DNA of 64,000 nucleotides from an uncultured Smithella sp. (GTDB taxonomy: Bacteria > Desulfobacterota > Syntrophia > Syntrophales > Smithellaceae): contig CAZSQS010000007.1 in NCBI GenBank assembly GCA_964608995.1, positions 7,843-71,842 of the forward strand. Direction: 5' to 3'. Shown here piece by piece: positions 5,058 to 32,578 of the stretch. The position numbers were made by a program, and so were the translations under genes. Numbering within the stretch: the first letter of the stretch is position 1; the number at the start of each line of letters is the position of its first letter. The notes under the pieces were generated by a model that was not told where the DNA came from, searched no databases, and worked only from the letters and a program-made list of their open reading frames with translations.

Positions 5058-5724
5058 AGCTGAAGAACGCGGCCTGGCGGGTGATTTTCAGCACTTTCAG
5101 CCCATCCGGCCGGGACTGACCTTCTTTGAGTGTATGCTCGTTGATCTGAACAAAGCGTTCATTGATGTCGGCACTGTAGAAATGTAAAAATATCTTGATT
5201 TCAGGAACGCGGCTTCTCGCCTCACCAGGCAATTTGTTAAGCGGCGGATATTTGTCGGCAGAAAAATTCCCTGTCTCCCCTTCACGAACTGGCGTTTGCT
5301 CTGTGTGCATATCCGTGGAACGCTCCGGCACGCGATCTGGCACATTCGCTGCGGGCTTCTCCTCCGGGGCATACGCCATATCCTCCTGTTTTTGCAGAAG
5401 CGGCGGATCGAGCGGTTTTTGGGATTCCTGAATCAATTTGGCATCGTATTCATACATCGGCTCAGGCGCAACGCTCGCCGCGTCCGGCGCCGTCTGGTTG
5501 TGAGCCGTGCTTCCCATTTTTGAAGCGGTTTTCGTCTGCTGAGCCCACCAGTAAATCCCCGCGACGTTGATGACGATTAACAAAACCGCCAGCGCCGCCA
5601 CATAGGGCCACCATTTTTTTCGATCGCGCGGCGGCTGATGATGGTGGTCGGAAAAAAGGTCCGGCGCCGCGCCGCGATGACGGTTCTTTTCGATTTTTTT
5701 CAACCCTTCGAGGATGTAAGACAT
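5017..5724 (-). CDS. GspB/ExeB-like single-pass membrane protein
   Basis: N-terminal MSYILEGLKKIEKNR motif and one TM helix (WWPYVAALAVLLIVINVAGIYWW). The start overlaps the stop of the upstream ExeA-like gene (TAATG). The 3' end overlaps convergent mltA by 41 nt. Confidence 0.5.
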   Translation of the reverse strand: MSYILEGLKKIEKNRHRGAAPDLFSDHHHQPPRDRKKWWPYVAALAVLLIVINVAGIYWWAQQTKTASKMGSTAHNQTAPDAASVAPEPMYEYDAKLIQESQKPLDPPLLQKQEDMAYAPEEKPAANVPDRVPERSTDMHTEQTPVREGETGNFSADKYPPLNKLPGEARSRVPEIKIFLHFYSADINERFVQINEHTLKEGQSRPDGLKVLKITRQAAFFSFKGQRFQMQAIDR

Positions 5725-8381: not shown

Positions 8382-8906
8382 TCAGACTTGCACGATACAA
8401 ACATCCGGCAGGAATCGGTCCTGCTCATTGTAATCAAGCCCATATCCGACGACAAATCCATCCTCCATCGTAAAACAGACATAATCTGCTTCCAGGGGAA
8501 CCTCCCTGCGCCTGAGCTTGTCCAAAAACACGCACACCTTAATCGACCTGGGATTTCTCTTTAGCAGGGTATCGATAATATAGCGAAGGGTCAGACCCGT
8601 ATCAATAATGTCCTCCACCACAATGACATCCCGGCCTTCGATGGCCATCTCGATGTCTTTGGTGAGACGAATCTGGCCGGAGCTTGTAGAACCGGCGCCA
8701 TAACTGGCCGCGCGGATGAAATCCAGCTGGCAGGGAATGGTGAGCTCCCGCGCCAGGTCCGCCAGAAAAATAAAAGCGCCCTTGAGCACACCGATCAGTA
8801 ATATTTCGCTGTCCGGATAATCTCTGGATATGTCGCCTGCAACTTCTTTGACCCGCCGCGCAATTTCGCTTCGGGAAAGAAAAACCTCCCTGGATGCCTC
8901 AACCAT
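8382..8906 (-). CDS. hpt: Hypoxanthine phosphoribosyltransferase
   Basis: LLIGVLKGAFIFLADLAREL and the PRPP-binding motif DVIVVEDIIDTGLTL. ATG 8906 has an AAAGGAA upstream. The track start at 8912 is a TTG. Confidence 0.9.
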   Translation of the reverse strand: MVEASREVFLSRSEIARRVKEVAGDISRDYPDSEILLIGVLKGAFIFLADLARELTIPCQLDFIRAASYGAGSTSSGQIRLTKDIEMAIEGRDVIVVEDIIDTGLTLRYIIDTLLKRNPRSIKVCVFLDKLRRREVPLEADYVCFTMEDGFVVGYGLDYNEQDRFLPDVCIVQV

Positions 8907-8968
8907 GAACAATTCCTTTAAATATCGTGGAATTTTGGGAAAATACTACTCAAGATCACCGCCGCCTG

Positions 8969-9790
8969 TCAATATAAATTCCAACGACGGCACAAGGAAA
9001 CAAACGCATTGATATTATCCCACACCATTTTTTCCGCCGCATCCAATTCTTCGGTACAGGAAAATTCGGATGACAGACTCAGCAGGATGGGATTAAGCGG
9101 GGAGATCTCCCGCCCGAATTTTTCATAGTCAATGTGAGAGATCATGTACTGCGATCCGTCGAAATAATATTTACCCAGGCGGTTGGCTTCTTCCGAATGA
9201 AACGGCCAGGCCATTTTCCAGGATAAATATTCAAGCGCCGTTTCGCTGAGCCCGGGGAGATCAAAATCTTCCGCTTTGATTTCGCGGCCGATACGATCGG
9301 CAATCAGCTTAAAATACGTCACGACCAGATCGATGTCTGTCAGGCACAGGCCATACAGATACCAGTCTTTAATCAGCTTGAGCAAAATAAGCTGCTGGGA
9401 GCGCGGTATAAAATGATGGCTGGGGCACAGATGACCCGCGCAGACTTCCTGCCCGTAAAAAGAGACGCCGCGCAGATCCACGCCGCCATTTTGCAAAGGA
9501 TGCAAAAGACAACCGACGCGTTTTTCGTCGGCATCGAGAAAGCCCAGATACTCGCAGCAGTAAATGACTTCATAGCGCTTGCGGAAATCCTCCGAAGCCA
9601 GCGTCTCCTGCGCATAGCGCTCCACATCGGCGGGGGCCTTGACCATTTCGCGGAAACGTCTCGTCCGCGCGCGAAGTCTTTTTGTCAGGGATTCCCGCGA
9701 CGAATCCACATAATTATATAAACCGCAGCAGGCGCCGCAGGATTTTCCCGGATCCGGCTGGCACAACACTTTGATATCCGCAGACGACAT
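8969..9790 (-). CDS. Hypothetical Cys-rich protein (CxxCC motif, YkgJ/UPF0153-like N terminus)
   Basis: 273-aa ORF with SCGACCGLYNY near the N terminus and further Cys/His clusters (CAGHLCPSHH). No other domain recognised. Confidence 0.45.
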   Translation of the reverse strand: MSSADIKVLCQPDPGKSCGACCGLYNYVDSSRESLTKRLRARTRRFREMVKAPADVERYAQETLASEDFRKRYEVIYCCEYLGFLDADEKRVGCLLHPLQNGGVDLRGVSFYGQEVCAGHLCPSHHFIPRSQQLILLKLIKDWYLYGLCLTDIDLVVTYFKLIADRIGREIKAEDFDLPGLSETALEYLSWKMAWPFHSEEANRLGKYYFDGSQYMISHIDYEKFGREISPLNPILLSLSSEFSCTEELDAAEKMVWDNINAFVSLCRRWNLY

Positions 9791-10364: not shown

Positions 10365-12842
10365 ATGACACAAACTATTGCCGATGCCTTGTTGCATTTA
10401 GCTGAAAAACCGAGCCGCTATATCGGCACGGAAGTCTCTGCCGCGCGCAAATCCGCAGCGGATTTACGTTTTTTACTGGCCTTCCCCGACACCTATGAAG
10501 TGGGCATGTCGCATCTGGGCCTGCAAATTCTCTATGCCGTGCTCAACGCGCGCGAAGGCGTCTGGGCCGAGCGCTCATTTGCCCCTTGGCCGGATCGCGA
10601 AGCCCTGCTTCGCGAGCGCGGCTTGCCGCTGACCTCGCTGGAATCCGGCTCACCGCTTTCGCAGTTTGATCTGGTTGGTTTTTCACTGCAATATGAACTC
10701 TCTTACACCAATGTGCTCAATATGCTGGATTTGGGCGGCGTGGCGATTCGATCCGCCGACCGACGCGAAACGGATCCGCTTATTCTGGCGGGCGGCCCCT
10801 GCGCTTTTAATCCCGCGCCACTTTCGGCTTTCATCGATGCCTTTGTCATCGGCGAGGGGGAACAAGCCATCCTGGAAATTGCCGAGAGCGTCATCGAGTG
10901 CAAAAAGCAAACGCTTTCCCGGCGTGCCGCGCTCGAGAAGCTCGCGAGGATTCCGGGCGTCTATGTGCCCTCCCTGCATGTCCCCGGGAACGTCATCTCC
11001 AGGCGCGCGCCTGTCAATCTCAATGACTGGCCCCATCCTGTCTCGCCGGTGGTGCCGCTCATGCAAACCGTGCATGACCGCATCGTCATAGAGCTGGCCC
11101 GCGGCTGCACGCGCGGCTGCCGGTTTTGCCAGGCGGGCATGCTCTGGCGTCCGTATCGCGAACGAAACGCATCGCAAGTTCTGGAAATGGCAAAGCAGAC
11201 GCTCGGAAACACAGGACATGACGAAATCTCGCTTCTGGCGCTCAGCGCCGGCGATTACAGTTGTATTGAACCCCTGATGCAGGCGCTGATGCAAAAGCAT
11301 TCGGCTGAAAAAGTCGCGCTGGCGCTGCCGTCGCTTCGCGTGGAAACCCTGGGACAGGCGCTGATTGAGGAAATCAAGCGCACGCGCAAAACCAGTTTCA
11401 CGCTGGCGCCCGAGGCGGGAACAGACAAAATGCGCCGCATCATCAACAAGGGCAACACCGCGCAGGATCTTTTGACGTCCATCGATAAAGTCTTTGCCTC
11501 CGGGTGGAAAGCCGTCAAGCTCTACTTCATGATCGGGCTGCCCGGCGAAGATGAAAGCGATCTTGCCGGCATTGTAGATTTGAGCTACGCGGCGCTTGGC
11601 GCGGCAAAAAGGCGCGGCCAGATCACCGTGAGCCTGTCCACCTTTGTTCCCAAGCCGCACACACCGTTTCAGTGGGCCGGGCAGTTGTCTTTGGACCAAA
11701 CTAAGGAGCGGCAGAATTTCCTGCGGCAAAAAATGCACAACCGCAATCTCAACGTCAAATGGCACGACGCACGCATGAGCCTCCTGGAGGGTCTGTTTTC
11801 ACGCGGCGATGAACACATCGGCCACCTTCTGGAAATCGCATGGCGCAAGGGCTGCCGCTTTGACGGCTGGGGCGAGCTTTTGCGCTTTGATTTGTGGGAA
11901 AGCGCCATTGGCGAAGCCGGAATATCGGTTGACGACTATCTGCGGGAGCGATCCACCACCGAGCCCCTGCCTTGGGATTTTATTGACTGCGGCGTCAGCT
12001 GCGAATTTCTTATCGCCGAAAAACACAAAGCCATCGAGCAGCAAACCACGGCGGATTGCCGGTTTGATGTCTGTCAGGCCTGCGGCGTGTGTGACTTTAA
12101 AGAGATACAGAATATCTTTTCCGACAAAGACTTTGGCACGCCGCATCAGGCCCCTGTCGCACCTGCGCAGATGGCGCCCCTGCGTGAAAAAGTCTATCGA
12201 TTAAGCTTTGCCAAAACCGGCCGGTCACGATTTTTATCCCATCTGGAGCTCGCGTCGGCGCTGACGCGCGCGCTTCGACGAAGCCCCTTGCAGCTTTCCT
12301 ACTCCGAAGGCTTTCATCCGCATCCCAAAATCTCGTTTGCCACGGCCACCTCCGTGGGCATGGAAAGTTTCTCGGAATTGCTCGATATCACGGCCCGCGA
12401 GTTTCCAGGCGATCTGGCCGTGCTTCAGAAGAACATCAATGCCGCCTTGCCGGAAGGTGTTTATGTTACGGCCATTGCGCTTTTGCCTTACACCGCCCCG
12501 GACCTCGCCCGCGCGCTTAAGGGATTTTGCTATGATCTGGTCTTGCCCGCCGATACGGACGATTCGAGACTGCAAAGGCTGGATCACAGCCTGCGCGCAT
12601 TTCTGGCCGCGGACACGTATGTCATCACCCGCATGGCCAAAGGCAAATCAGTCAAGCGCGACATCCGTCCCTTTGTAAAAAGCCTCACGCTTTCGACGCC
12701 GGAAAAGAAAGTGATCGCCGAGGTCAGCCATGCGCAAAACGGCTCCGTGCGCCCGGTGGACATCATCGAACACATTATGGGATTTCCGGCCGATGCCATT
12801 CATCTTGTCACCATCGTTAAAACACACACGCTTCTGATCTGA
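10365..12842 (+). CDS. B12-binding-domain radical SAM protein fused to a DUF2344-type C-terminal domain (TIGR03960/TIGR03936-like)
   Basis: ELARGCTRGCRFCQAG matches the CxxxCxxC radical SAM motif. There is an N-terminal B12-binding-like region and a C-terminal YRLSFAKTGRSRFLSHLEL...EGFHPHPKISF segment typical of DUF2344. Confidence 0.8.
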   Translation: MTQTIADALLHLAEKPSRYIGTEVSAARKSAADLRFLLAFPDTYEVGMSHLGLQILYAVLNAREGVWAERSFAPWPDREALLRERGLPLTSLESGSPLSQFDLVGFSLQYELSYTNVLNMLDLGGVAIRSADRRETDPLILAGGPCAFNPAPLSAFIDAFVIGEGEQAILEIAESVIECKKQTLSRRAALEKLARIPGVYVPSLHVPGNVISRRAPVNLNDWPHPVSPVVPLMQTVHDRIVIELARGCTRGCRFCQAGMLWRPYRERNASQVLEMAKQTLGNTGHDEISLLALSAGDYSCIEPLMQALMQKHSAEKVALALPSLRVETLGQALIEEIKRTRKTSFTLAPEAGTDKMRRIINKGNTAQDLLTSIDKVFASGWKAVKLYFMIGLPGEDESDLAGIVDLSYAALGAAKRRGQITVSLSTFVPKPHTPFQWAGQLSLDQTKERQNFLRQKMHNRNLNVKWHDARMSLLEGLFSRGDEHIGHLLEIAWRKGCRFDGWGELLRFDLWESAIGEAGISVDDYLRERSTTEPLPWDFIDCGVSCEFLIAEKHKAIEQQTTADCRFDVCQACGVCDFKEIQNIFSDKDFGTPHQAPVAPAQMAPLREKVYRLSFAKTGRSRFLSHLELASALTRALRRSPLQLSYSEGFHPHPKISFATATSVGMESFSELLDITAREFPGDLAVLQKNINAALPEGVYVTAIALLPYTAPDLARALKGFCYDLVLPADTDDSRLQRLDHSLRAFLAADTYVITRMAKGKSVKRDIRPFVKSLTLSTPEKKVIAEVSHAQNGSVRPVDIIEHIMGFPADAIHLVTIVKTHTLLI

Positions 12843-12916
12843 CGGAACAAAAAACAGAAATAATAATCAATATATTAGCGGATTAACCGGTCATTGCCTG
12901 TATCATTGCTGTCTCA

Positions 12917-12948
12917 GTCCCGCCCATCCGAACGGGACATATCTGTCC
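12917..12948 (+). promoter_or_regulatory. Upstream inverted repeats GTCCCG-N10-CGGGAC overlapping GGACA-N4-TGTCC (candidate activator site)
   Basis: Read directly: GTCCCGCCCATCCGAACGGGACATATCTGTCC. The GGACA half-site starts exactly 100 nt upstream of the GG of the TGGCAT box at 13034. The same architecture occurs at 14615-14649. Confidence 0.45.
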
Positions 12949-13033
12949 GATAACCTGTGGGTTAGGCAGGTCATAACTGCCTGCCTCCAACCCATGTGTA
13001 TAAATATCATACACATAGAATTTCAGTGGGATA

Positions 13034-13050
13034 TGGCATAAAATTTGATT
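13034..13050 (+). promoter_or_regulatory. Sigma-54-like -24/-12 promoter candidate
   Basis: TGGCATAAAATTTGATT compared with the consensus TGGCACG-N4-TTGC. GG and the -12 TTG are spaced correctly and the -12 C is replaced by A. It lies 93 nt upstream of ATG 13128. It shares 13 of 17 positions with 14735-14751. Confidence 0.45.
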
Positions 13051-13127
13051 GCATCTTAACCATTTACGGATTCAAGCGATAGGGGCATTCATCAATAGTC
13101 GTAAAATTAAAAATTTGGAGGAGTAAA

Positions 13128-14516
13128 ATGAAAAAAAGCTTTTTAATGGTTCCCATTTTGTTATTGGCGTTTCTGATGACCGCCACATCGGGTCATGCGC
13201 AGTGGTGGTGGATATCCAGCTCCTCCTCTTCGAGTTCATCTTCGTCCAGCTCTTCTTCTTCGAGTTCGTCCGGATCAAGCTGGTGGTGGATTTCAAGTTC
13301 TTCTTCGTCTTCGTCTTCTTCGAGTTCATCGTCATCGAGCTCCAGCAGCTCTTCTTCCGGTTCTTACTCCGATCCCGGAACAGGCCCGTTTGCTTTAGTG
13401 CCGGACAATCAGGTGGCTAATGCCTGCAAGCTGGATCCCAATCTGCTCAAAACCGCCGACCGGACCATCGGCGCGCCCTATATCATTGTGCGCTACGGAA
13501 AGCTCTGCCATCAATACCTGCCCAACGGCACGGACCGCGCGGCTGAAGTTTATTCCACCACCAAATCGCTGGGCGGGGCCGTCACGGGCGCGGTTGCCTA
13601 TGAAACACGCAATATGAACCGCACCGGCCGCAAAACCGGACCGCTTTCAGACGTTGACCGTGTGGATCACTGGCTGGATCGTTTCAGTTATAATGATGAC
13701 GCCCTGATCGCCCACGTGCTGGCCATGGTGGCCCATAACCGCAGCCTGACCAACGGCCGCATGACCTATGAGTACGATACCGTCGGCTCCGTTCAGATCA
13801 ACAGCTTAAGCGATATCATCAACACGGCCATCGCGCAGGATTCCAGCCGCCTGGGCCGCAACATCGATGAATTCACAAAACGGTTTGTTTTCAATCCGTT
13901 GGGCATGACCAACTCCACCTGGTCCAACGGATCGTCCAATAAAACCTTCGCCTACACCTGGTCAACGACCATGCACGACATGGCACGTCTGGGGCTGATG
14001 ATCCTGCACCGTGGCACGTATAACGGCAAACGCGTGATGTCGGAGGGCTGGGCCTATCGCATGACGCATCCCGCTTTTGAAGAGGCCAACACCGCTTACG
14101 GCTATTTGACCTGGCTCAATTCCCGCGGTGGCGGCACGGGTCCCGGAGGCGCCGGCACGGGTACGGATGGTGATACGTGCGCGCCGGCAGCTTTATGGAA
14201 CAGCTACCCGCACTATCCGTCCACATATCCGAACTGCAAAGCCAGTCTTGGAAATAATTGCAATCAGGTCAATGACATGGGCGTCTGGAGCGCACAGGGC
14301 ATGGGCGGCCAGTTCATTGTGGGCCATCCCGGACTGGATCTCCTGATCGTTGCTAAAAATTTCAGCGGTGGCGACGGCCCCACCGGCCTTTGGAAGGCCA
14401 TTCGTCCGGCGCTGGTGGCGCTGGATCCCGTTTACAAGGGTAACGAATCGTCTTTCTGTTCGGCCTACGCCGCAACGACTTACGCGCCGGATATGCCGAC
14501 CCAGCCCAAGCCGTAG
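13128..14516 (+). CDS. Secreted beta-lactamase-fold serine hydrolase (esterase-like) with N-terminal WWW-polyserine tail
   Basis: GGAGGAG RBS. Signal peptide MKKSFLMVPILLLAFLMTATSGHA with an AxA-type cleavage site before QWWW. The tail is QWWWI-S19-GSS-WWWI-S22-G. The catalytic part has the S-x-x-K motif (YSTTKSLGG). Confidence 0.8.
   Translation: MKKSFLMVPILLLAFLMTATSGHAQWWWISSSSSSSSSSSSSSSSSSSGSSWWWISSSSSSSSSSSSSSSSSSSSSSGSYSDPGTGPFALVPDNQVANACKLDPNLLKTADRTIGAPYIIVRYGKLCHQYLPNGTDRAAEVYSTTKSLGGAVTGAVAYETRNMNRTGRKTGPLSDVDRVDHWLDRFSYNDDALIAHVLAMVAHNRSLTNGRMTYEYDTVGSVQINSLSDIINTAIAQDSSRLGRNIDEFTKRFVFNPLGMTNSTWSNGSSNKTFAYTWSTTMHDMARLGLMILHRGTYNGKRVMSEGWAYRMTHPAFEEANTAYGYLTWLNSRGGGTGPGGAGTGTDGDTCAPAALWNSYPHYPSTYPNCKASLGNNCNQVNDMGVWSAQGMGGQFIVGHPGLDLLIVAKNFSGGDGPTGLWKAIRPALVALDPVYKGNESSFCSAYAATTYAPDMPTQPKP
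13200..13361 (+). repeat. WWW-polyserine tail module (protein-level low-complexity repeat)
   Basis: Codon-by-codon reading gives CAG TGG TGG TGG ATA, 19 Ser codons, GGA TCA AGC TGG TGG TGG ATT, 22 Ser codons, then GGT. All six Ser codons are used. Confidence 0.95.
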
Positions 14517-14561
14517 CAGGCACATTACTGCATTGTTTGGAACGCACTAAAAATTCATTAA

Positions 14562-14598
14562 CCTGAGGAGGACGGGCTTTAAGCCCGCCCTCCTCAGG
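14562..14598 (+). terminator. Rho-independent terminator candidate after the first tail-bearing gene
   Basis: CCTGAGGAGGACGGGC / GCCCGCCCTCCTCAGG form a 16-bp stem with one mismatch and a 5-nt loop, followed by TATTTACATTTTT. Confidence 0.6.
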
Positions 14599-14614
14599 TA
14601 TTTACATTTTTCTT

Positions 14615-14649
14615 GTCCCGTAGCGTCCCATCGCGGGACAAATATGTCC
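14615..14649 (+). promoter_or_regulatory. Second copy of the GTCCCG...CGGGAC / GGACA-N4-TGTCC upstream inverted repeats
   Basis: GTCCCGTAGCGTCCCATCGCGGGACAAATATGTCC. The GGACA at 14636 is exactly 100 nt upstream of the GG at 14736. Confidence 0.45.
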
Positions 14650-14734
14650 GACCATCTGATGGCCACATCAGGCACGTTCACCTTATAAATCAATATCACT
14701 TAACAATACAATAGTTTACAAACCATGTGCCTCA

Positions 14735-14751
14735 TGGCACAGATATTGATT
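14735..14751 (+). promoter_or_regulatory. Sigma-54-like -24/-12 promoter candidate
   Basis: TGGCACAGATATTGATT has a perfect TGGCAC -24 box and TTGA at the -12 position. It lies 99 nt upstream of ATG 14835. Confidence 0.5.
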
Positions 14752-14834
14752 GTTGATGTGTGCCACAAAGAGATGCGCCGTAAATGGATTTTCGGCGGAA
14801 AATTAAAAAAAACAAACAGCGCGGAGGGGAAAAG

Positions 14835-15773
14835 ATGAAAAAGTTTTTATTTATAGTTCCAATTCTGTTTTTGGCATTTCTGATTGCCTCATCAAACGGT
14901 TACGCCCAGTGGTGGTGGTTCTCCAGTTCATCATCTTCCAGTTCAAGTTCGTCTTCCTCAAGTTCAAGTTCAAGTTCAGGTTCAACGTGGTGGTGGATTT
15001 CCAGTTCATCATCTTCCAGTTCGTCGTCCAGTTCTTCATCCTCTTCATCCTCAGGAGCCACAGGTTCAGTTGAAGCCAGAATTGAAGCGGGTGGAACCAT
15101 CCCGGCGGGAACCTACACGCTGACCCGGAAAATTTCCATCTCAAAAAGCGGACTGACCATCACGGCCAACAATGTCATTCTTGACGCGAAAAACTTAACC
15201 GACACGTCCTCGGGCGACGCCATCACCATCAGTGGCAGCAATAACAAGCTCATCGGCATCACCGTCAAGAATGCCGGACATAACGGCATATTAATCAAAG
15301 GCAACGGCAACACCCTCCAGAACTGCATCACGCATTCCAATAAGAACACAGGGATAAACATCAAGGGCAGCGCGGCCAACAACCTCATCACCGGCTGTAA
15401 ATCCTATAACAATTACGACACGCATACCTCCGGTGAAAATGCCGACGGCTTTGGCGTGAAGGATTGCACCGGCAGCGGCAATAAATTTGAAAACTGCGAA
15501 GCCTGGGATAATTCAGACGATGGCTGGGATTTCTGGGGCACGACGGGCGCCGTAACCGTCATCGGTTGTTATGCGCACGATAATGGAAGAGGTTCAGCCG
15601 GAGACGGCAATGGCTTCAAGCTGGGTGAAAGCGGCGTTTGCGGCAGGCATTATTTGAAAGATTGCACCGCCAAGAACAATCTCGCCTGCGGTTTTACGAA
15701 AAATGGCAACACCTGCACAATCACCTATGTCAATTGCGTCAGCAGCAATAACGGAAAGGTGGACAAACGGTAG
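14835..15773 (+). CDS. Secreted right-handed parallel beta-helix protein, pectate-lyase-like (PL9-like by motif) with N-terminal WWW-polyserine tail
   Basis: GGAGGGGAAAAG precedes ATG 14835, and the track start at 14784 lacks an RBS. Signal peptide MKKFLFIVPILFLAFLIASSNGYA precedes QWWWF-S19-GST-WWWI-S18. Repeated beta-helix turns (NNKLIGITVKNAGHNGILIKGNGNTLQNC...), GENADGFGVKD and DNSDDGWDFWG. Confidence 0.75.
   Translation: MKKFLFIVPILFLAFLIASSNGYAQWWWFSSSSSSSSSSSSSSSSSSSGSTWWWISSSSSSSSSSSSSSSSSSGATGSVEARIEAGGTIPAGTYTLTRKISISKSGLTITANNVILDAKNLTDTSSGDAITISGSNNKLIGITVKNAGHNGILIKGNGNTLQNCITHSNKNTGINIKGSAANNLITGCKSYNNYDTHTSGENADGFGVKDCTGSGNKFENCEAWDNSDDGWDFWGTTGAVTVIGCYAHDNGRGSAGDGNGFKLGESGVCGRHYLKDCTAKNNLACGFTKNGNTCTITYVNCVSSNNGKVDKR
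14907..15053 (+). repeat. WWW-polyserine tail module
   Basis: QWWWF, 19 Ser codons, GGT TCA ACG TGG TGG TGG ATT, 18 Ser codons, then GGA. Confidence 0.95.
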
Positions 15774-15903
15774 TTTTTTGTCGGATCAGAAAAAGGCGGC
15801 TATTTGAAAAAAGGCAGGTACCAAAAGGCTTCGGCGGATCAAATGAGACAAAGCCGTTTATTGCCGGAGCAAATATAAATCAGTTTTAAAGGGAGGGGAA
15901 AAG

Positions 15904-16710
15904 ATGAAAAAGTATTTATGGATGATTCCGGTTTTGTTTTTGGCATTCCTGATTGCCTCATCAAACGGTTATGCCCAGTGGTGGTGGTTCTCCAGCTCAT
16001 CATCTTCCAGTTCAAGTTCGTCTTCCTCAAGCTCAAGTTCAGGCTCAACCTGGTGGTGGATTTCCAGTTCCTCATCCTCCAGCTCATCCTCTTCCAGTTC
16101 GTCTTCGTCAAGCTCTTCGTCTTCAGGATCGGGTGGAACGATGACGATTACCAGCACGATTATCGTTAAAGCGGGGGCCACCTATGACGGCAAGGGCGTC
16201 ACCATCAAGGCCGTGGGGCTTGGCGACGGCAGTCAGGACGAAAATCAGAAACCCATTTTTCGGCTCGAAAACGGCGCAACGCTTAAAAACGTCAACATCG
16301 CCGCGCCCGGCGCAGACGGTGTGCATTGCTACGGCGGCTGCACCGTCACCAACGTGGTCTGGCAGGATGTGGGCGAGGATGCCCTGACGATTAAATCCTC
16401 CGGAACGGTCACAATCAATAATTGTAAATTTTACAAAGCCACCGACAAGGTCATTCAGGTCAACGCTGCAAGCACCCTGTATGTCAACAACAGTTCCGCC
16501 GACACCATGGGCAAATTTATTCGCCAGAATGGCGGAACGACGTTCACCTGCACATGGTATTTAAACGGCGTGAACATTAAAAATGCCTCGGAATGCATCG
16601 CGCGAACGGACAGCTCGACCACGAAACTTTATTACAGAAACCTGACCTACTCCAACGTCGGCACCTTGTGGAAGTTCCCCAATGCCGGCAGCCAGGTCAA
16701 ACCCTACTAG
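15904..16710 (+). CDS. Secreted pectate lyase, PL3-type, with N-terminal WWW-polyserine tail
   Basis: Same RBS string GGAGGGGAAAAG. Signal peptide MKKYLWMIPVLFLAFLIASSNGYA precedes QWWWF-S17-GST-WWWI-S21. The catalytic part (GDGSQDENQKPIFRLENGATLKNVNIAAPGADGVHCYGGCTVTNVVWQDVGEDALTIKSSG...FIRQNGGTTF) closely resembles Bacillus/Fusarium PL3 pectate lyases as I remember them. Confidence 0.85.
   Translation: MKKYLWMIPVLFLAFLIASSNGYAQWWWFSSSSSSSSSSSSSSSSSGSTWWWISSSSSSSSSSSSSSSSSSSSSGSGGTMTITSTIIVKAGATYDGKGVTIKAVGLGDGSQDENQKPIFRLENGATLKNVNIAAPGADGVHCYGGCTVTNVVWQDVGEDALTIKSSGTVTINNCKFYKATDKVIQVNAASTLYVNNSSADTMGKFIRQNGGTTFTCTWYLNGVNIKNASECIARTDSSTTKLYYRNLTYSNVGTLWKFPNAGSQVKPY
15976..16125 (+). repeat. 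WWW-polyserine tail module
   Basis: QWWWF, 17 Ser codons, GGC TCA ACC TGG TGG TGG ATT, 21 Ser codons, then GGA. Confidence 0.95.
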
Positions 16711-16919
16711 TCTGCGTTCAAGGCTGGTCTGGTTTATTTTTTTTCGACAAAGATGAGAAACACCGACATGCTCTTCCAGGGAAGGAAGATCAGGGCGCCC
16801 CAAGTCCATGAAAGGGTGCGGGGCGCCTAAACCTGGTCATACCCGATACCATCGGAAACCGCCATATCGGCCTTTGGACCATTGACATGAAAGCCGGATG
16901 AGTCCGCACGGAGGGGAAA

Positions 16920-18554
16920 ATGAGAAAAAGCTTTTTGATCTTTCCTGTTTTGTTTCTGGCATTGCTGGCAATAGCCACAACAAGCCATGCCCAGTGGTGG
17001 TGGATTTCGAGCTCATCTTCCTCTTCCAGCTCATCCTCCAGCTCTTCATCCTCAGGCTCCTCGTGGTGGTTTATCAGTTCATCATCTTCTTCATCCAGTT
17101 CGTCGTCCAGTAGTTCGTCGTCATCTTCTTCTTCTTCCTCCTCGTCGTCTTCATCGTCGAGTTCTTCGTCAGGTACGACGTTTAAAAACCCGCTTAACGG
17201 TTCCGGCCCTGACCCGTGGATGACTTACTATAACGGAAATTACTACATGGCGGCAACCACGTGGGGCGGCGCGAACACGGGTCTGACCATGCGCAAGGCG
17301 CCAATCATCGCGGCGTTGAAAACCGCGCCCCAGACGCGTATCTGGCAGGATTCGACCTCATCGCGTTGCTGCAATATGTGGGCGCCGGAGTTCTTCCTGC
17401 TTAACGGCCCCAACGGCTGGCGCTGGTATGGCTATTACACGGCGGGCCCGACGACCTGTTGCGACGGCCAGCGGCTCCATGTCATTGAAAGTGCGGGAAC
17501 CGACCCGATGGGACCCTATACCTATAGGGGTCAACTTTCCGATACCACCGGCGGATGGATGATTGACGGCAGCATCCTCCAGTTAAACGGCAAACTCTAC
17601 CTGCTGTTTTCCGCATGGAGCGGCAGTAATCAAAATGTTTACATCGTCGGCATGACCAATCCATGGAGTCTTACCGGCAACCGGGTGCTGCTCTCGACGC
17701 CAACCTACAGTTGGGAGAAACAGGGAGGCAACGTCAACGAGGGCCCCGTGGCGATCCAGAGAAATGGCAAGACGTCTGTAGTCTATTCCGCAAGCGCCTG
17801 CGCCAATCAAAATTACGCAATGGGCCAGATGACCCTGACGGGAACCAACCCGCTGGTGGCCTCTGCCTGGAGCAAGAAATCGACCGCCGTCTTCACAAGG
17901 GCCAACGGGGTTTACGGCCCCGGGCACAACACCTTCTTTACCTCCCCGGATGGATCGGAAACCTGGATGGTCTATCACGGCAATGCCTCTTCGACCGGCG
18001 GATGTGATATGTACCGCCAGCCGCATATCAAAAAGATCGCTTTTAACAGCGATAACACCCCCAGTTTGGGAAGCCCGATCAATCCGGCCAACTCCGTCAC
18101 CGTCCCCTCCGGGGATAAAGGCGCGGGCGCGCGGCCCGTCTATCGCATCGCCAACCGCAATAGCGCCAAGGTGTTGGAAGTCGCCAACTGTAACGCAGCG
18201 GATGGCACCAACATCCAGCAATACGCGTCACTGGGCAATACCTGCCAGCAGTGGACCACGCAGGATACCGACAGCGGGTATGTCATGATTGTGAATGTCG
18301 CTACCGGCAAACTTCTGGAAGCAGCGGGATGCGGCACATCGGATGGAACAAACATCCAGCAGTGGAGCTGGCTGAAAAACACCTGCCAGCAGTGGAAGCT
18401 GGTGACCACTACCAGCCCGTACGTGAAAATCATCAACCGCGCAAGCGGCAAGGTGCTGGATGTCTCCAACTGCTCCACCGCCAATGGCGGCAATGTCCAG
18501 CAATGGAGCGATCTGGGAAATTCCTGCCAGGAATGGCAGATCACATCACCGTAA
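16920..18554 (+). CDS. Secreted GH43-family glycoside hydrolase with C-terminal ricin-type (CBM13-like) beta-trefoil and N-terminal WWW-polyserine tail
   Basis: GGAGGGGAAA RBS. Signal peptide MRKSFLIFPVLFLALLAIATTSHA precedes QWWWI-S16-GSS-WWFI-S32. GH43-like motifs are GPDPWMTYYNGNYYM, WAPEF, GPGHNTFF and WMVYH. The C-terminal region has three QxW repeats (CQQWTT, CQQWKL, CQEWQI) with IQQY/IQQW/VQQW. Confidence 0.8.
   Translation: MRKSFLIFPVLFLALLAIATTSHAQWWWISSSSSSSSSSSSSSSSGSSWWFISSSSSSSSSSSSSSSSSSSSSSSSSSSSSSSSGTTFKNPLNGSGPDPWMTYYNGNYYMAATTWGGANTGLTMRKAPIIAALKTAPQTRIWQDSTSSRCCNMWAPEFFLLNGPNGWRWYGYYTAGPTTCCDGQRLHVIESAGTDPMGPYTYRGQLSDTTGGWMIDGSILQLNGKLYLLFSAWSGSNQNVYIVGMTNPWSLTGNRVLLSTPTYSWEKQGGNVNEGPVAIQRNGKTSVVYSASACANQNYAMGQMTLTGTNPLVASAWSKKSTAVFTRANGVYGPGHNTFFTSPDGSETWMVYHGNASSTGGCDMYRQPHIKKIAFNSDNTPSLGSPINPANSVTVPSGDKGAGARPVYRIANRNSAKVLEVANCNAADGTNIQQYASLGNTCQQWTTQDTDSGYVMIVNVATGKLLEAAGCGTSDGTNIQQWSWLKNTCQQWKLVTTTSPYVKIINRASGKVLDVSNCSTANGGNVQQWSDLGNSCQEWQITSP
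16992..17174 (+). repeat. WWW-polyserine tail module (second triplet is WWF)
   Basis: QWWWI, 16 Ser codons, GGC TCC TCG TGG TGG TTT ATC, 32 Ser codons, then GGT. Confidence 0.95.
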
Positions 18555-18597
18555 GAGAAAAAAGAAGCTATTAAATTCATGAAGGAAGGAGTTCACT

Positions 18598-19821
18598 ATG
18601 AAAGACAGGTTTTTTAAAAGAGGAATCTCCGTTCAGATGGCGCTGACCGGACTCGTTTTTGCGCTGGTTTTGTTTGCGGCAGGCGCTAATCAGGCTTTTG
18701 CGCTATCCGGCGATTACCGCACGCACGACCCCAGTATGATCCGGGCGACCAACGGCTGCTATTACGCCTTTTCCACCGGCGACAACGCCTACAATCGGGG
18801 AAACATCCAGATTCGCAGATCCTGCGATCTGGTCAGCGGCTGGAAGCTGCTTGGCACGGTCTTTACCACCGTCCCCTCCTGGATCAGCTCCGCAATCGGC
18901 TCGACGCCGGGAAATCTCTGGGCGCCGGATATCAATTACTTTAACAACAAATACTATCTGTACTATTCCGCCTCCACGTTCGGCTCGAACCGCTCGGCCA
19001 TCGGTCTGGCCACGGCTACAAACATCGAAGGCCCCTGGACGGATTCGGGTCAGGTGATTCGCTCCTCAACATCCAACAACTACAACTGTATCGATCCGGA
19101 AATCGCCTGGACCATCACCAACAATCAGCGCGCCGAGATGTGGCTGTTGTTCGGCTCCTTCTGGGACGGTATCAAAATGCGTCAGCTCAACAATTCGACC
19201 GGCAAACTCTCTACGACCAAAACCACGCTGTATTCACTGGCCTCCCGTGGCGGCGGCGCAATTGAGGCCGCCTCCGTCGCGTGGCGCAACGGGTATTACT
19301 ATCTGTTCGTTTCATTCGACAAATGCTGCAGCGGCACGAGCAGCACCTACCGCATCATGGTGGGCCGCTCCAAAAATATCACCGGGCCGTATGTCGATAA
19401 AAGCGGCGTGGATATGCGAAACGGCGGCGGCACGCAGGTTCTGACTAAATCCAGCAACATGGTCGGCCCCGGCGGCCAGGATGTCTTTCTTGACGGGTCA
19501 ACCTACCGCATGGTCTATCACTACTATGATTCCAACCAAAACGGCGACTTTCGGATGGCCATCCGGGATCTGAACTGGTCGGGCGACTGGCCCGCGGCAG
19601 GCTCCATGTCTTCTGCTGTCAGTTCGTCTTCGTCAAGTTCCTCCAGCTCGTCGAGTTCATCCTCCAGTTCTTCGTCCAGCTCGTCGTCCTCGAGTTCGTC
19701 TTCCTCGTCTTCAAGCTCATCGTCTTCGAGTTCGTCAGGATCAAGCTGGTGGTGGTCCACAAGTTCGTCTTCAAGCTCATCGTCTTCGAGTTCGTCAGGA
19801 TCAAGCTGGTGGTGGTTTTAA
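18598..19821 (+). CDS. Secreted GH43 arabinanase-like glycoside hydrolase with C-terminal WWW-polyserine tail
   Basis: GAAGGAAGGAG RBS only 43 nt after the previous gene. It has its own, different signal peptide (…LVLFAAGANQAFA). GH43 arabinanase-like motifs are YRTHDPSMI, LWAPDINYFNNKYYLYYSAS, DPEIAW, FGSFWDGIKM and GPGGQDVF. The C terminus is S39-GSS-WWW-ST-S12-GSS-WWWF-stop. Confidence 0.8.
   Translation: MKDRFFKRGISVQMALTGLVFALVLFAAGANQAFALSGDYRTHDPSMIRATNGCYYAFSTGDNAYNRGNIQIRRSCDLVSGWKLLGTVFTTVPSWISSAIGSTPGNLWAPDINYFNNKYYLYYSASTFGSNRSAIGLATATNIEGPWTDSGQVIRSSTSNNYNCIDPEIAWTITNNQRAEMWLLFGSFWDGIKMRQLNNSTGKLSTTKTTLYSLASRGGGAIEAASVAWRNGYYYLFVSFDKCCSGTSSTYRIMVGRSKNITGPYVDKSGVDMRNGGGTQVLTKSSNMVGPGGQDVFLDGSTYRMVYHYYDSNQNGDFRMAIRDLNWSGDWPAAGSMSSAVSSSSSSSSSSSSSSSSSSSSSSSSSSSSSSSSSSSSSSSGSSWWWSTSSSSSSSSSSSSGSSWWWF
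19621..19818 (+). repeat. C-terminal WWW-polyserine tail module containing an exact 52-nt direct repeat (19705-19756 and 19765-19816)
   Basis: Codon reading gives 39 Ser, GGA TCA AGC TGG TGG TGG TCC ACA, 12 Ser, GGA TCA AGC TGG TGG TGG TTT, then TAA. The 52-mer TCGTCTTCAAGCTCATCGTCTTCGAGTTCGTCAGGATCAAGCTGGTGGTGGT occurs twice with a 60-nt period. Confidence 0.95.
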
Positions 19822-19856
19822 TTCAACTGCTCATTGAGCAAATCGCAAACACACAA

Positions 19857-19886
19857 AAAGCCGGGGATTGCCCCGGCTTTTTTTTA
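19857..19886 (+). terminator. Rho-independent terminator after the five-gene block
   Basis: AGCCGGGG ATTG CCCCGGCT hairpin followed by TTTTTTTT. Confidence 0.8.
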
Positions 19887-19916
19887 TCCAAGATATCATT
19901 ATCGTATCTGGACCAC

Positions 19917-19994
19917 TCATTCCCGCGAAAGCGGGAATCCAGAACTCTTTAATAAGCCTGGATTCCGGGTCGCGCTTCGCTTGCCAGCAATGAC
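19917..19994. repeat. REP-like intergenic palindromic element (ATTCCCGC-N4-GCGGGAAT core)
   Basis: Perfect 8-bp stem with GAAA loop at 19919-19938. A second stem GGAATCCAG (19934-19942) / CTGGATTCC (19958-19966), then GGGTCGCGCTTCGCTTGCCAGCAATGAC. The core recurs at 59618-59637. Its translations give the SFPRKRESR / RLRGND-type pseudo-peptides. Confidence 0.7.
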
Positions 19995-20033
19995 AAGAAT
20001 TGGAACTACGACGCCGTCTCACTCAACAAGGGA

Positions 20034-20894
20034 TCACCGCAATTTTTCATACACCATCATGACGGTGTTGACATAAACCTCGCTGCGATTGTAATACCAG
20101 ATGGCTTTTCGCTTTTGCTCATCGGAAGCGCTTTCCCGCCAGCCGAATTTCTTCAGATAGTAGCCCATGCTGAACTTTGCATCCGTCAGGTTAAACGGAT
20201 CGGCGAGGCCGTCTTCGTCTCCATCAACACCGAAAAGCCAGAAAGACGATGGAATAAACTGAGCCGGCCCCATGGCGCCGGCAAACGACCCGGCAATGCT
20301 CAAAGGATCAATATTGAGGTGGTCAGCAATGTAAATCAGATGCGCCAGTTCGCCAAGCGCCCAGTTGGCCCGTTTGCGAATACGCTTGTAGGTTTTCTCT
20401 TCTTTGAGCTGGGGATACTCATCCACATAGCGATTGCGGAATTTCAGCAAGTAATCCGGATCCAGTAAAAAGGCCAGATTGGCATAAGCCGTGGCCACAT
20501 TGTAAGGCATGGGATACGTGCCCAGCCGTGATTCGATGAGCAAAATGGCGGTGATGATCCGAGGCGACGTGCCGTAACGCGCTTCAACGGCCGCAAGCGT
20601 CCCCGCGTGCTCAAGCATAAACGCCGCGGAGCGCTGAATCTGCGCGGGAGGAATTCGCATCACATCCGGGCGTTCGGCTGATCCTTTCGGGCTGGAATAA
20701 AAAAGGTTTTTAATGACAATATCCGGCCGGACCTCAACGCAATCTTCACACAGGATACTTTGCGCCTTCGCAGGGTCAATCCCCCGGCCAACGAGCAAAG
20801 CCTCCACTGTTGCCCGCTGCGCCCAGGCTGCACCTGAAAAGAAAACGAATGCCGGCACAACCACGGCCAATCCATACCAGAGACTTCTTCTCAT
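20034..20894 (-). CDS. Lytic murein transglycosylase (MltB/SLT_2-like)
   Basis: Signal peptide. ILLIESRLG (catalytic Glu context) and GSFAGAMGPAQFIPSSFWLFGVDGDEDG. Confidence 0.8.
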   Translation of the reverse strand: MRRSLWYGLAVVVPAFVFFSGAAWAQRATVEALLVGRGIDPAKAQSILCEDCVEVRPDIVIKNLFYSSPKGSAERPDVMRIPPAQIQRSAAFMLEHAGTLAAVEARYGTSPRIITAILLIESRLGTYPMPYNVATAYANLAFLLDPDYLLKFRNRYVDEYPQLKEEKTYKRIRKRANWALGELAHLIYIADHLNIDPLSIAGSFAGAMGPAQFIPSSFWLFGVDGDEDGLADPFNLTDAKFSMGYYLKKFGWRESASDEQKRKAIWYYNRSEVYVNTVMMVYEKLR

Positions 20895-20983
20895 TCATCC
20901 ACCTTCGGGTTTTTGTCTTTGGCGTCATGATATTGGCCGGTATTCGTTTTTGCAAGCAAAATCGGGCCCGAACGAGAGCGCGT

Positions 20984-22423
20984 CTATCCGGTATACCCCA
21001 CAGCATCCGCCAGTTCTTTGACCACGGCCTTGACGGACATGGCCTGCGCTGTGGTTTCTTCTGAAACGGAAGACGCCTCCTGGGCGCCTGCGGCGTTGGT
21101 TTGCGCCGAGCGGCTGATTTCCTCAATCAGCGCATTAATCCGATTGACCGTGTCGAGCTGCCCGGAGGCCTTTTTGGCGGCCTCCTCGGTATAGGTATAG
21201 ATATTCATGGAACTGGTGCCATATTCAACAAATTTTTTCACGCTCAGCCCGATATAATCGTTTCCGTTACTGGAAATTCTTGTGGTCTTGTCGATCAGGG
21301 TCAGCGAGTTTTTAGCCGCTTCCGTCGAACGCGCCCCTAAACCGCGAATATCATCGGACACCACCGCAAAACCGCTGCCCGCATCCCCGGCGCGCGCCGC
21401 CTCCACCGAGGCATTGAGGGCCAGCAGATTGGTTTGAAACGCAATTTTCTCGATCGTCTGAACAATGCCGGAGGTCTCCTCACTGGTTTGCTTGATTCCC
21501 TTCATTGCCTTTTTGGCTTCTTTCATCGTCCCGAAGGCATCCATCCCTATACCGTTAATGCTCATTAATCGGTCCTTTAAGGTTCCAATGATGTCCATAT
21601 AGCTTTTGTTGAGGGTTTTGAGTTCCTCGGTGGCGGAATAGGTTTCTTCCACAGCTGAGGCCTGAACGGACGTCCCTTCCGCCAGATGTGAACTCGAATT
21701 GGCAATCTGTCCGGCTGCCTCGGCAAATTGCTCGGCCGTTTCCGTCAGATTCGCAATCACCCGGTAAATCGGACCGGTAATGGAGCGCGCAAAATAGACG
21801 CCCAGCGCCAGCGCCAGAAGAATCCCGAAAATCGTTCCCGCCACGGCCGTGATTTTCAGCCACGAGGCTCTGGCCAGCGCAGCGGCCCCTGTCGCTTCCG
21901 CCATTTCTTCATTCATGTCCGACAGGCGCCTCATAAGGGTCTGACCCTCCTCCAGCGCTGCGGATAACTTTGTATTCATCACCGTGAGGGCCTCATCGCG
22001 CCGATCGTTTTTCAGAAGGTCCAGAAACTCCGCATCCACCTTCCGCCATGACTCCCAGGCGGTTTTAAGATTTTTCCAGATCGCATCGATGTTGTCCTTG
22101 CGCGGCAGGGCGTCATAGGCCTTGAAGGCCGCATCGGCGCGCTCCCAAGCCTGAGAAGCGCTTCTTTGCAGGCGCTCTCTTTCAAGCGGATTGGCATAAG
22201 TCTCCGGCGCCAGAAGCGTCTGCTCGATGGCCAGAATACTTTGTTGCTGATCACTCATGACCGAAAGGTGATACGTTTCCGGCAGCTGAACGTGAACAAA
22301 CGCTTTCAAATGTCCCGCAATGCTGGAGATCCCGAAAATCCCCACCAGGCCGCCCACCAGCAGTACACCCGCCATGATCAAAAATCCGCCAATTAATCTT
22401 GTACTCAATTTCTGATTTTTCAT
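20984..22423 (-). CDS. Methyl-accepting chemotaxis protein
   Basis: Two TM helices flank a helical sensor region. The highly conserved signalling hairpin is [31 protein letters not shown]. The ATG overlaps the upstream MCP stop (ATGA). Confidence 0.9.
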
Positions 22424-32341: not shown

Positions 32342-32578
32342 ATTGCGTTACACATCTTTCTTTCCAAACATTCATCGCGTCGGCGGACAAAATCGTTTTT
32401 ACCGTACAGTCTTAAATTAACTTTTTACCTGAAAAAATCAACTACCGATTTTTCTTTTTCGCCATAAAGACCGATATTGAGTCAAATATCGCATCCGACG
32501 CGAAAATAATTGACACTGTGGCTGTTTTTAAGGTATTTTTCGCGGAAAGTCAGATATATCCGGTATCGGGAAGGTTGC

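Follow-up and report, generated by a model that had tools for sequence, protein, structure and literature searches.

How did five neighboring genes for enzymes of unrelated families come to carry the same peptide tag, and what might the tag do for them? The question is raised by a 64-kb stretch of contig CAZSQS010000007.1 from an uncultured Smithella sp. (here called the window; coordinates are window positions unless the locus L019, L021, L039, or L041 is named). By a six-frame scan, the tag, which combines a Trp cluster (WWW) with long Ser runs, was found in exactly five genes of the window, between positions 13128 and 19821. These genes are adjacent, lie on the same strand, and all encode secreted enzymes that degrade pectin or arabinan. 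Genes 1 to 4 are tagged at the N terminus and gene 5 at the C terminus. Their catalytic domains belong to four unrelated families (a serine hydrolase, a Pel9A-like lyase, a PL3 lyase, and, in two genes, GH43), and the only catalytic similarity detected by blastp among the five was between genes 4 and 5 (26%, both GH43). We conclude that a portable 5′ cassette, consisting of ribosome-binding site (RBS), signal peptide, and tag, was very probably transferred onto unrelated enzymes. Cassette transfer together with a role of the tag as an adhesive tether is, overall, the best explanation that we can offer and a likely one.

The tag and the tract shared by genes 2 and 3

In the N-terminal cassettes, a Shine-Dalgarno site is followed by a signal peptide and by two units of the form WWW(I/F)-Ser16-32-GS(S/T). 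The signal peptides of genes 1 to 4 are exactly 25 amino acids (aa) long and mutually homologous, with the consensus M(K/R)K..L...P(V/I)L(F/L)LA(F/L)L......(G/S)(Y/H)A|Q and the ends ...NGYA|Q, ...SGHA|Q, and ...TSHA|Q; the signal peptide of gene 5 is unrelated to them. Tag units measure 20 to 36 aa and consist entirely of Ser, except for three to four aromatic residues and GSx. The ten poly-Ser runs span 12 to 39 residues, each 100% Ser, and a single tag Trp is changed to Phe (WWFI in unit 2 of gene 4). Neither Pfam nor NCBIfam recognized a domain in residues 1 to 77 of the tagged proteins. For gene 3, AlphaFold2 (31-sequence alignment) returned residues 1 to 77 without secondary structure at confidence scores (pLDDT) of 45 to 57, and the beta-helix domain from residue 79 mostly at pLDDT >90, a model in which the tag of gene 3 is predicted to be disordered.

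An earlier note, made from the sequence by hand alignment, had claimed that genes 2 and 3 share their 5′ ends at about 90% nucleotide (nt) identity. We aligned 14800-15080 with 15869-16150 by MAFFT and scored the alignment segment by segment. The tract 14823-15020 versus 15892-16083 comprised 198 columns with 175 matches, 17 mismatches, and one 6-nt indel (91.1%), which bears out the estimate. Counted by segment, 12/13 columns match in the RBS, 65/75 in the signal peptide, 68/72 in unit 1, and 30/33 at the beginning of unit 2. As the note had also stated, the 12-nt RBS string GGAGGGGAAAAG is exact at 14823-14834 and 15892-15903. A copy with one mismatch is present at 16910-16921, before gene 4, and the same string stands ahead of the gene 2 orthologue in the related locus L019. 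Because RBS and start are conserved with gene 3, gene 4, and the L019 orthologue, we place the real start of gene 2 at 14835; its longest open reading frame (ORF) opens at the ATG at 14784, with 17 extra residues (MDFRRKIKKNKQRGGEK).

The edges of the tract are sharp, since about 20 nt at either end suffice for identity to fall from 91% to the background level. The 22 nt located 5′ of the tract are only 23% identical between the two genes. Past 15020/16083, within the second Ser run, where the similarity had been said to decay, identity drops to about 53%, approximately the level expected of unrelated Ser codons. By blastn, the gene 2/gene 3 pair was recovered at E = 1e-73. In the first Ser run, 15/17 aligned Ser codons are identical, compared to a fraction of 0.18 expected from pooled six-codon usage (binomial p = 7e-10), and the signal peptides use the same codon at 16 of their 20 identical residues. 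The similarity of the tract exceeds what low complexity or protein conservation would give. Since 15/17 Ser codons agree where 18% would be expected, the tract reflects shared DNA ancestry and not convergence.

Whole-gene duplication of gene 2 into gene 3, with later divergence of the catalytic parts, would explain why the genes are adjacent, lie on the same strand, and have very similar 5′ ends, and, broadly speaking, each of the two catalytic parts is a right-handed beta-helix. However, the identity does not run on into the catalytic regions. As the note had it, these show no similarity (blastp gave no alignment of gene 2 with gene 3) and are of different types, with Pfam assigning gene 2 to PF22842 (Pel9A-like beta-helix) and gene 3 to PF03211 (PL3). 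The abrupt ends of the tract also speak against duplication. Moreover, each gene has its own orthologue in L019 at 75 to 88% identity, and by these separate orthologues duplication is refuted; we give it practically no weight. The restriction of the gene 2/gene 3 homology to RBS, signal peptide, and tag supports module transfer or gene conversion, the reading that the note had preferred.

The remaining copies are linked by codon-level patterns. All eight N-terminal units open with WWW-x-TCN-AGY-TCN-TCN-TCN-TCN. The Ser runs (13215-13358, 14922-15053, 15991-16125, 17007-17171, and 19621-19797; Tandem Repeats Finder periods of 6 to 30 nt) use all six Ser codons in a 5-codon (15-nt) TCN-AGY-TCN-TCN-TCN periodicity and are not simple repeats. 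From the common start and this periodicity, we infer that a single DNA unit, enlarged by the duplication of blocks, is ancestral to all tag units. AGY and TCN Ser codons are not interconvertible by single synonymous changes, and for this reason the Ser runs probably grew as duplicated blocks that later diverged at third positions only. The final two units of gene 5 are a 60-nt tandem duplication in which 14/15 codons are identical. In addition, the 18-mer GGATCAAGCTGGTGGTGG, reported earlier as shared, is indeed present in gene 1 (13272) and in both gene 5 units (19738 and 19798), with 0 occurrences expected by chance. Except for the gene 2/gene 3 pair, the internal pair of gene 5, and the gene 1-gene 5 junction, Ser codons agree between copies at chance level. 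A second subtype, proposed for genes 1 and 4, received weak support: their signal peptides are mutual best matches (73% nt, 60% aa), but their Ser codons match at chance level. An apparent mosaic origin of the distal gene 3 tag (89% identity to unit 1 of gene 1 by blastn) was rejected as a register effect of the common 15-nt periodicity.

The chance-level Ser codons of genes 1 and 4 are what would be expected if Ser/Trp extensions had arisen independently, by slippage and selection and with no transfer of DNA. Low-complexity runs expand readily, as the 6- to 30-nt repeat periods illustrate, and the C-terminal GH43 tags of the window and L019 differ slightly in their junction residue. Convergence is nevertheless refuted for genes 2 and 3, which share RBS and signal peptide in addition to the 15 Ser codons. 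Elsewhere it would have to produce the exact 18-mer common to unit 2 of gene 1 and the gene 5 units, the same codon start in 8/8 N-terminal units, and four homologous 25-aa signal peptides unlike those of untagged orthologues. We therefore consider it highly improbable.

Not one of the 176 Ser codons of the runs is replaced by a non-Ser codon, while synonymous sites are scrambled, and Trp is kept at 29/30 tag positions across diverged copies. The combination of uninterrupted Ser, conserved Trp, and randomized synonymous sites argues for purifying selection on the tag peptide. A neutral low-complexity insertion that hitch-hikes with recombination would agree with two observations, namely, that close homologues do without the tag and that the tag is limited to a narrow lineage. 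It would not be expected to keep Ser runs pure while all six codons are scrambled, to retain all but one Trp, to show equal lengths and synonymous substitutions between strains, or to become fixed on five genes. Neutrality is accordingly a very unlikely account of the tag.

Related loci and the spread of the cassette

Locus L019 (NCBI contig CAZGDK010000016.1 of GCA_964525155.1) is syntenic with the window over a stretch that starts at the GspB/GspA-like genes, takes in an 823-aa radical-SAM gene, and ends at SLT_2 and two MCP genes. Its gene 2 orthologue (8749-9651) follows the same RBS and carries a variant tag, ...SGYA|QWW-S7-TSG-WW-S21.... The homology of gene 2 between the two loci is unbroken, reaching from the RBS past the tag and across the catalytic part (14805-15772, 76.7% nt by blastn; catalytic part, 87.6% aa). 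The L019 orthologues of genes 3 and 4, the latter of 489 aa, are untagged and have ordinary, differing signal peptides, so that gene 2 is the only N-terminally tagged gene there. L019 has no gene 1, for which no counterpart was found in any related locus fetched.

Comparison of the orthologous loci had been proposed as a check on cassette swapping, and it was informative for genes 3 and 4. By blastn, nt homology between the window and L019 begins at 16137 in gene 3 and at 17176 in gene 4, immediately past the window cassette and immediately past the L019 signal peptide. The junctions read SYA|ATKTITATI (L019) versus ...GSGG-TMTITSTI (window) in gene 3 and SVSA|ATFKNPL (L019) versus ...SSG-TTFKNPL (window) in gene 4, with the mature N termini, T(K/M)TIT and (A/T)TFKNPL, preserved. 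Judged from these alignments, the cassette replaces exactly the signal peptide of genes 3 and 4 and leaves the mature N terminus intact. Because the untagged orthologues carry a signal peptide exactly where the cassette sits, module transfer or gene conversion is supported. Three features by which ectopic conversion or module transfer is recognized are present: a sharp-edged tract, identity at synonymous sites, and tract-free orthologues of the recipients (L019 genes 3 and 4, L041 gene 4, and P0002/P0003). The last two are gene 3 orthologues of 215 aa with a plain signal peptide; P0003 is 77% identical and lies on L019.

The cassettes were also recovered from another sample. L021, an independent Logan contig of 1,460 bp that is about 98% identical to the window, holds the distal part of the gene 3 cassette and the complete gene 4 cassette, both at the same lengths as in the window. 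From this we conclude that the cassettes are real, not assembly artifacts, and stable in length. In the gene 3 cassette, five substitutions, all synonymous, and no indel separate the two sequences, and RBS, signal peptide, and tag of gene 4 are identical at 266/266 positions. P0001, the best gene 3 homologue (97%), sits on L021, where its gene call begins at the Met right after the tag. Divergence along L021 (1-1460 versus window 16000-17460) is uneven. The gene 3 region differs by 3 to 5%, and the gene 3-gene 4 intergenic region, the gene 4 cassette, and the start of the gene 4 catalytic part are 99.7 to 100% identical, which suggests a recent recombination boundary near the gene 3 stop codon.

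Two further syntenic loci, L039 (JGI 3300045916) and L041 (JGI 3300005259), contain gene 2-like and GH43 genes, all untagged, and L041 additionally carries a PL1 gene and a GH43-ricin gene. The same chromosomal site thus holds 0 (L039, L041), 2 (L019), or 5 (window) tagged genes. No tag was seen in the nonsyntenic locus L040, in metagenomic GH43 homologues, or in the nearest homologues of genes 2 and 3 (about 20 others inspected), and none of the 17 loci retrieved from metagenomes with the catalytic domain of gene 4 as the query was tagged. Protein collections were also searched. A word-index search with the 78-aa cassette yielded no candidates in a collection that is without every tag-bearing protein looked up. 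A profile hidden Markov model of the four cassettes gave 0 matches among 1.84 billion representatives, with a HMMER bias filter that penalizes poly-Ser. By exact look-up, genes 1, 3, and 5, the L019 gene 2 orthologue, and the tagged L019 GH43 protein are absent from the 15-billion-protein collection, whereas proteins encoded right next to them on these contigs are included. The collection seems to filter out or miscall low-complexity proteins, and since every tagged protein looked up is missing, such searches are weak evidence of absence. At the DNA level, the degenerate pattern WWW(I/F)S8, which demands TCN for the first and third Ser and does not cover the WW form of the tag in L019, matched 18 times in 185,579 species-representative genomes and 8 times in viral contigs, in all cases as out-of-frame chance hits. 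A literature search found no description of a WWW/poly-Ser tag. As far as seen in these sequences, the tag appears confined to the window lineage (five genes) and L019 (two genes).

These comparisons suggest a course of events. The tag would have originated with gene 2 and its ancestors, with a possible second origin at the C terminus of a GH43 enzyme. Duplications, both of 15-nt blocks of Ser codons and of entire units, would have lengthened it before it was copied to neighboring genes through ectopic recombination or gene conversion, with selection retaining the copies. Gene 2 is the likely donor of the gene 3 cassette, since its L019 orthologue already has the RBS and the tag. Orthologues of the window and L019 are 70 to 77% identical in nt compared to 91% in the gene 2/gene 3 tract, which dates the last gene 2/gene 3 exchange to well after the separation of the two genomes. 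The copies in genes 1 and 4 are probably older, as their Ser codons are randomized.

At the C terminus, the residue to which the GH43 tag is joined is not quite the same in the window as in L019. Neither of the L019 paralogues, tagged or untagged, is closer to gene 5 than the other, so that a single and a double gain of the C-terminal tag are both compatible with the data. The L019 paralogues form a tandem pair of 82.5% nt identity, in which 12302-13315 ends in ...AGSMQ* and 13443-14621 ends in S-rich-GWW-S12-GWWLSSN*; they could represent free and tethered isoforms. That gene 5 is an unequal-crossover hybrid of this pair was considered and found unsupported, because the equidistance (about 73% nt) holds along its entire length.

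The interval from the radical-SAM gene to SLT_2 is a variable island of carbohydrate-active enzyme genes (window, 12843-20033; L019, 8500-16209; L039, 9759-12830; L041, 7409-12621). It holds two genes in L039, four in L041 (where PL1 replaces PL3), five plus a PD40-repeat protein in L019, and five, including gene 1, in the window. Flanking housekeeping proteins are 70% and 63% identical (aa) between the window and L019, 66% and 61% between the window and L039, and 72% between L019 and L039. The gene 2 catalytic domain, at 87.6% aa identity between the window and L019 and 63 to 70% for the flanking proteins, hints at lateral exchange of island genes. The minus strand at 5017-7355 carries the genes for two accessory proteins of type II secretion: one is GspB-like (PF16537), and the other is a GspA/ExeA-like AAA+ protein that includes a peptidoglycan-binding domain. 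These genes are probably unrelated to the tag, because they are kept in all syntenic relatives, tagged or untagged.

A candidate adhesive tether

The composition and architecture of the tag lead us to favor, with some caution, a generic function as a disordered adhesive tether. Read by eye, the residues at -3 and -1 (G/S-x-A) fit cleavage by signal peptidase I before Gln. Signal peptidase I would then cut at A|Q, and the mature proteins of genes 1 to 4 would begin with QWWW(I/F), followed 20 to 23 residues on by the second Trp cluster, by 18 to 32 Ser, and by the enzyme. Gene 5 would present the mirror arrangement, with WWWF-COOH at its C terminus. The Trp clusters may act as anchors and poly-Ser as a flexible spacer, by which the secreted enzyme would be held to a surface, be it that of the cell envelope or that of the plant-wall substrate. 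On the Wimley-White interfacial scale, an established literature scale, each Trp cluster sums to about -6 kcal/mol. Our confidence in any specific target is lower than in the generic tether; the cell envelope is a tentative first candidate, and the plant-wall substrate is a still more tentative second. The adhesive tether is favored because the tag occurs at either terminus, because tagged and untagged GH43 genes stand side by side in L019, and because no transmembrane helix, lipobox, or known sorting motif was found. Clustering of the enzymes with one another, a machine-recognized signal, and neutrality are each less likely.

As a special case of the tether, the Trp clusters might be a minimal carbohydrate-binding device that stacks against sugar rings or the faces of cellulose. 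Each of the five carriers acts on plant-wall polysaccharides, and four of them are without any carbohydrate-binding module (CBM). The binding face of CBMs is aromatic, and it is to such modules that poly-Ser linkers lead elsewhere. In known poly-Ser-linked carbohydrases, the linker joins to a CBM (PMC2386152, PMC2699552). However, three consecutive Trp in a disordered chain cannot form a planar aromatic strip like that of a folded CBM, gene 4 is tagged despite its own ricin-type lectin domain, and no CBM family in Pfam or NCBIfam matches the tag. Carbohydrate binding therefore appears doubtful to us.

The tag might instead be a signal, to be cleaved or modified, for a dedicated secretion, sorting, or modification machine, such as recruitment to a type II secretion system, a sortase-like enzyme, or O-glycosylation. 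The signal-peptide subtype is co-inherited with the tag, which recalls the specialized signal peptides of serine-rich surface proteins, and the GspA/GspB-like genes lie 6 to 8 kb upstream. Those genes are equally present in untagged relatives, however, and the signal peptide of gene 5 is unrelated to the others. There is no transmembrane helix or basic tail, no sorting-signal or special signal-peptide model in Pfam or NCBIfam was matched, and the 64-kb window contains no candidate processing enzyme or glycosyltransferase. Because the tag occurs at either protein end, a binding or tethering role fits better than a processed sorting signal. On these grounds a machine-directed signal is improbable. 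No partner gene for the tag is evident in the window, whose content is otherwise housekeeping.

Several points weigh against cassette transfer with an adhesive tether as a full account. In genes 1 and 4, the Ser codons agree with those of the other copies no better than by chance, and common descent of these two cassettes is argued from signal-peptide homology and the shared TCN/AGY pattern. In its final ~50 nt, the gene 3 tag does not resemble that of gene 2, so that a simple one-step fusion is not a full explanation. Replacement of the 5′ end in one step and conversion between preexisting cassettes are both compatible with the sequences, and the divergent distal segment leads us to favor conversion of an already tagged gene 3. 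Polarity, meaning gain in the window lineage and not loss elsewhere, is argued by parsimony from two tag-bearing genomes and one strain fragment. The flanking housekeeping proteins place the window at much the same distance from L019 and from L039, and for this reason the species tree alone does not root the events; the gene 2 catalytic domain groups the window with L019 (87.6%). Binding by the Trp clusters is something that we infer from composition and architecture. Finally, a Sec-exported protein with exposed Trp clusters would still have to cross the outer membrane. The nearby GspA/B-like genes also occur in untagged relatives.

In its most far-reaching form, the tag would be a new lipid-free, position-independent device for surface retention or enzyme clustering, built of aromatic stickers and poly-Ser spacers, that arose recently and de novo in one deltaproteobacterial lineage and is spreading as a DNA cassette. 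We advance this only as a speculative possibility. If it is true, the locus offers a natural example of the birth and spread of a new protein-localization signal. As an anchor or tether, the tag would hold secreted enzymes on a surface with about 50 to 60 residues, without lipidation, and in a genetically portable way; this would bear on how anaerobic sediment bacteria limit the loss of exoenzymes by diffusion, and the tag could be used directly for display or immobilization. The 0/2/5 series would document, with codon-level evidence, a localization module spreading between nonhomologous neighbors. Such features may escape the mining of protein databases, the tagged proteins being absent while their neighbors are present.

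The coordinates of the features are collected in Table 1. The hairpin at 19855-19882 is likely, from its sequence, a bidirectional terminator that closes the five-gene block; apart from it, promoter and terminator scans remained at background level, and Rfam had no match within 12000-21000. Farther downstream on the plus strand, a 730-aa ORF (32510-34702) without a Pfam match and a 753-aa ORF (36621-38882), the sole match of which is an eCIS_core (DUF4157-type) domain, flank an amidase/LysM gene on the opposite strand.

Table 1. Tagged genes, their parts, and associated elements in the window
Feature	Position	Strand	Parts	Basis or remark
Gene 1, beta-lactamase-fold serine hydrolase, probable esterase	13128-14516	+	Signal peptide 13128-13202; unit 1 (WWWI-S19-GSS) 13203-13280; unit 2 (WWWI-S22) 13281-13358; catalytic 13359-14513	ORF; weak PF00144 and PDB matches
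Gene 2 RBS, GGAGGGGAAAAG	14823-14834	+		Left edge of gene 2/gene 3 tract
Gene 2, Pel9A-like right-handed beta-helix pectate lyase	14835-15773	+	Signal peptide 14835-14909; unit 1 (WWWF-S19-GST) 14910-14987; unit 2 (WWWI-S18) 14988-15053	Pfam PF22842/PF13229
High-identity tract in gene 3	15892-16083	+	RBS, signal peptide, unit 1, unit 2 start	91% to 14823-15020
Gene 3, PL3 pectate lyase	15904-16710	+	Signal peptide 15904-15978; unit 1 (WWWF-S17-GST) 15979-16050; unit 2 (WWWI-S21) 16051-16125; GSGG junction to 16137	PF03211 at 1.5e-48
Gene 4, GH43 + ricin-type lectin (CBM13-like), with RBS	16910-18554	+	ORF 16920-18554; signal peptide 16920-16994; unit 1 (WWWI-S16-GSS) 16995-17063; unit 2 (WWFI-S32) 17064-17171; catalytic from 17172	Pfam
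Gene 5, GH43 endo-arabinanase-like, C-terminal tag	18598-19821	+	S39 19621-19737; GSS-WWW-ST 19738-19761; S12 19762-19797; GSS-WWWF 19798-19818; stop 19819-19821	Pfam; NCBIfam AbnA 1.9e-91
GC-rich hairpin, T/A runs on both sides	19855-19882			12-pair stem, 7 GC pairs

Comparison with known systems

The closest likeness is to the poly-serine linkers (PSLs) of secreted carbohydrases from Cellvibrio japonicus, Saccharophagus degradans, and Teredinibacter turnerae, which are long, near-pure Ser runs on plant-polysaccharide enzymes, including pectate lyases. PSLs average 39 to 44 residues and 80 to 83% Ser, and their function is still described as unknown (PMC2386152, PMC2699552). By composition (tens of residues, at least about 80% Ser), the tag would be counted among them, with runs of 16 to 39 residues, a similar order of length. 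The same holds for its carriers, a Pel9A-like and a PL3 lyase, two GH43 enzymes, and a serine hydrolase, all with signal peptides. Unlike PSLs, which connect a CBM to a catalytic domain, the Ser runs of the tag join no folded partner but only Trp clusters of 3 to 4 residues and the end of the chain. The tag is also terminal, is repeated in units, and moves with its own RBS and signal peptide. The hosts differ as well, PSL hosts being gammaproteobacterial, whereas the host of the window, to judge by the nearest named homologues, seems to be a Desulfobacteraceae-like deltaproteobacterium.

Surface-retained carbohydrases of Saccharophagus, Cellvibrio, and Teredinibacter are known to carry PSLs and lipobox anchors (PMC2386152, PMC2699552), and outer-membrane retention has been proposed for the lipobox-anchored carbohydrases of S. 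degradans (PMC2386152). The order of parts is alike, with a signal peptide, a hydrophobic anchor at the mature N terminus, a flexible spacer, and the enzyme. In contrast to lipobox proteins, residues 1 to 77 of the four N-terminally tagged proteins contain no Cys, and the predicted A|Q site is one for signal peptidase I. The anchor would consist of Trp side chains and not acyl chains, and a C-terminal version, which is beyond lipidation, also exists. Three consecutive Trp also form the core of tritrpticin, where WWW drives binding to the membrane interface (PMC4790384), and the Wimley-White sums of the tag are large. Tritrpticin, however, is a free cationic 13-mer with flanking Arg, whereas the tag is uncharged, flanked by Ser, and covalently attached to enzymes; membrane binding of the tag could be suggested by analogy.

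Gram-positive serine-rich repeat adhesins likewise inherit a signal-peptide subtype together with a long, disordered, Ser-rich region. The signal peptide of the tag (MKK(x)L..P(V/I)LFLAFL...) nevertheless has no KxYKxGKxW motif, and the carriers are enzymes. The SAG1386/EF1546 and ser_rich models of NCBIfam reached 15 to 25 bits against cut-offs of 80 to 650, and the window holds no SecA2/Y2 or glycosyltransferase genes. Unlike the hosts of these adhesins, the window has an envelope of the diderm type (Lnt and GspA/B are present). Among C-terminal sorting signals, no Pfam or NCBIfam model (PEP-CTERM, LPXTG, GlyGly-CTERM, or the C-terminal domain of the type IX secretion system) matched, and gene 5 lacks a transmembrane segment and a basic tail. 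Choline-binding repeats and GW modules gave no Pfam match at E<=0.01; the former measure about 20 aa and the latter about 80 aa.

The shuffling of noncatalytic modules between carbohydrases is an already known kind of event. What seems new is the content of the module, Trp triplets on poly-Ser in a terminal position and without a folded domain, as far as the sequences tell. The inclusion of the RBS and the signal peptide in the module also seems new, as does the occurrence of 0, 2, and 5 tagged genes at one chromosomal site across genomes.

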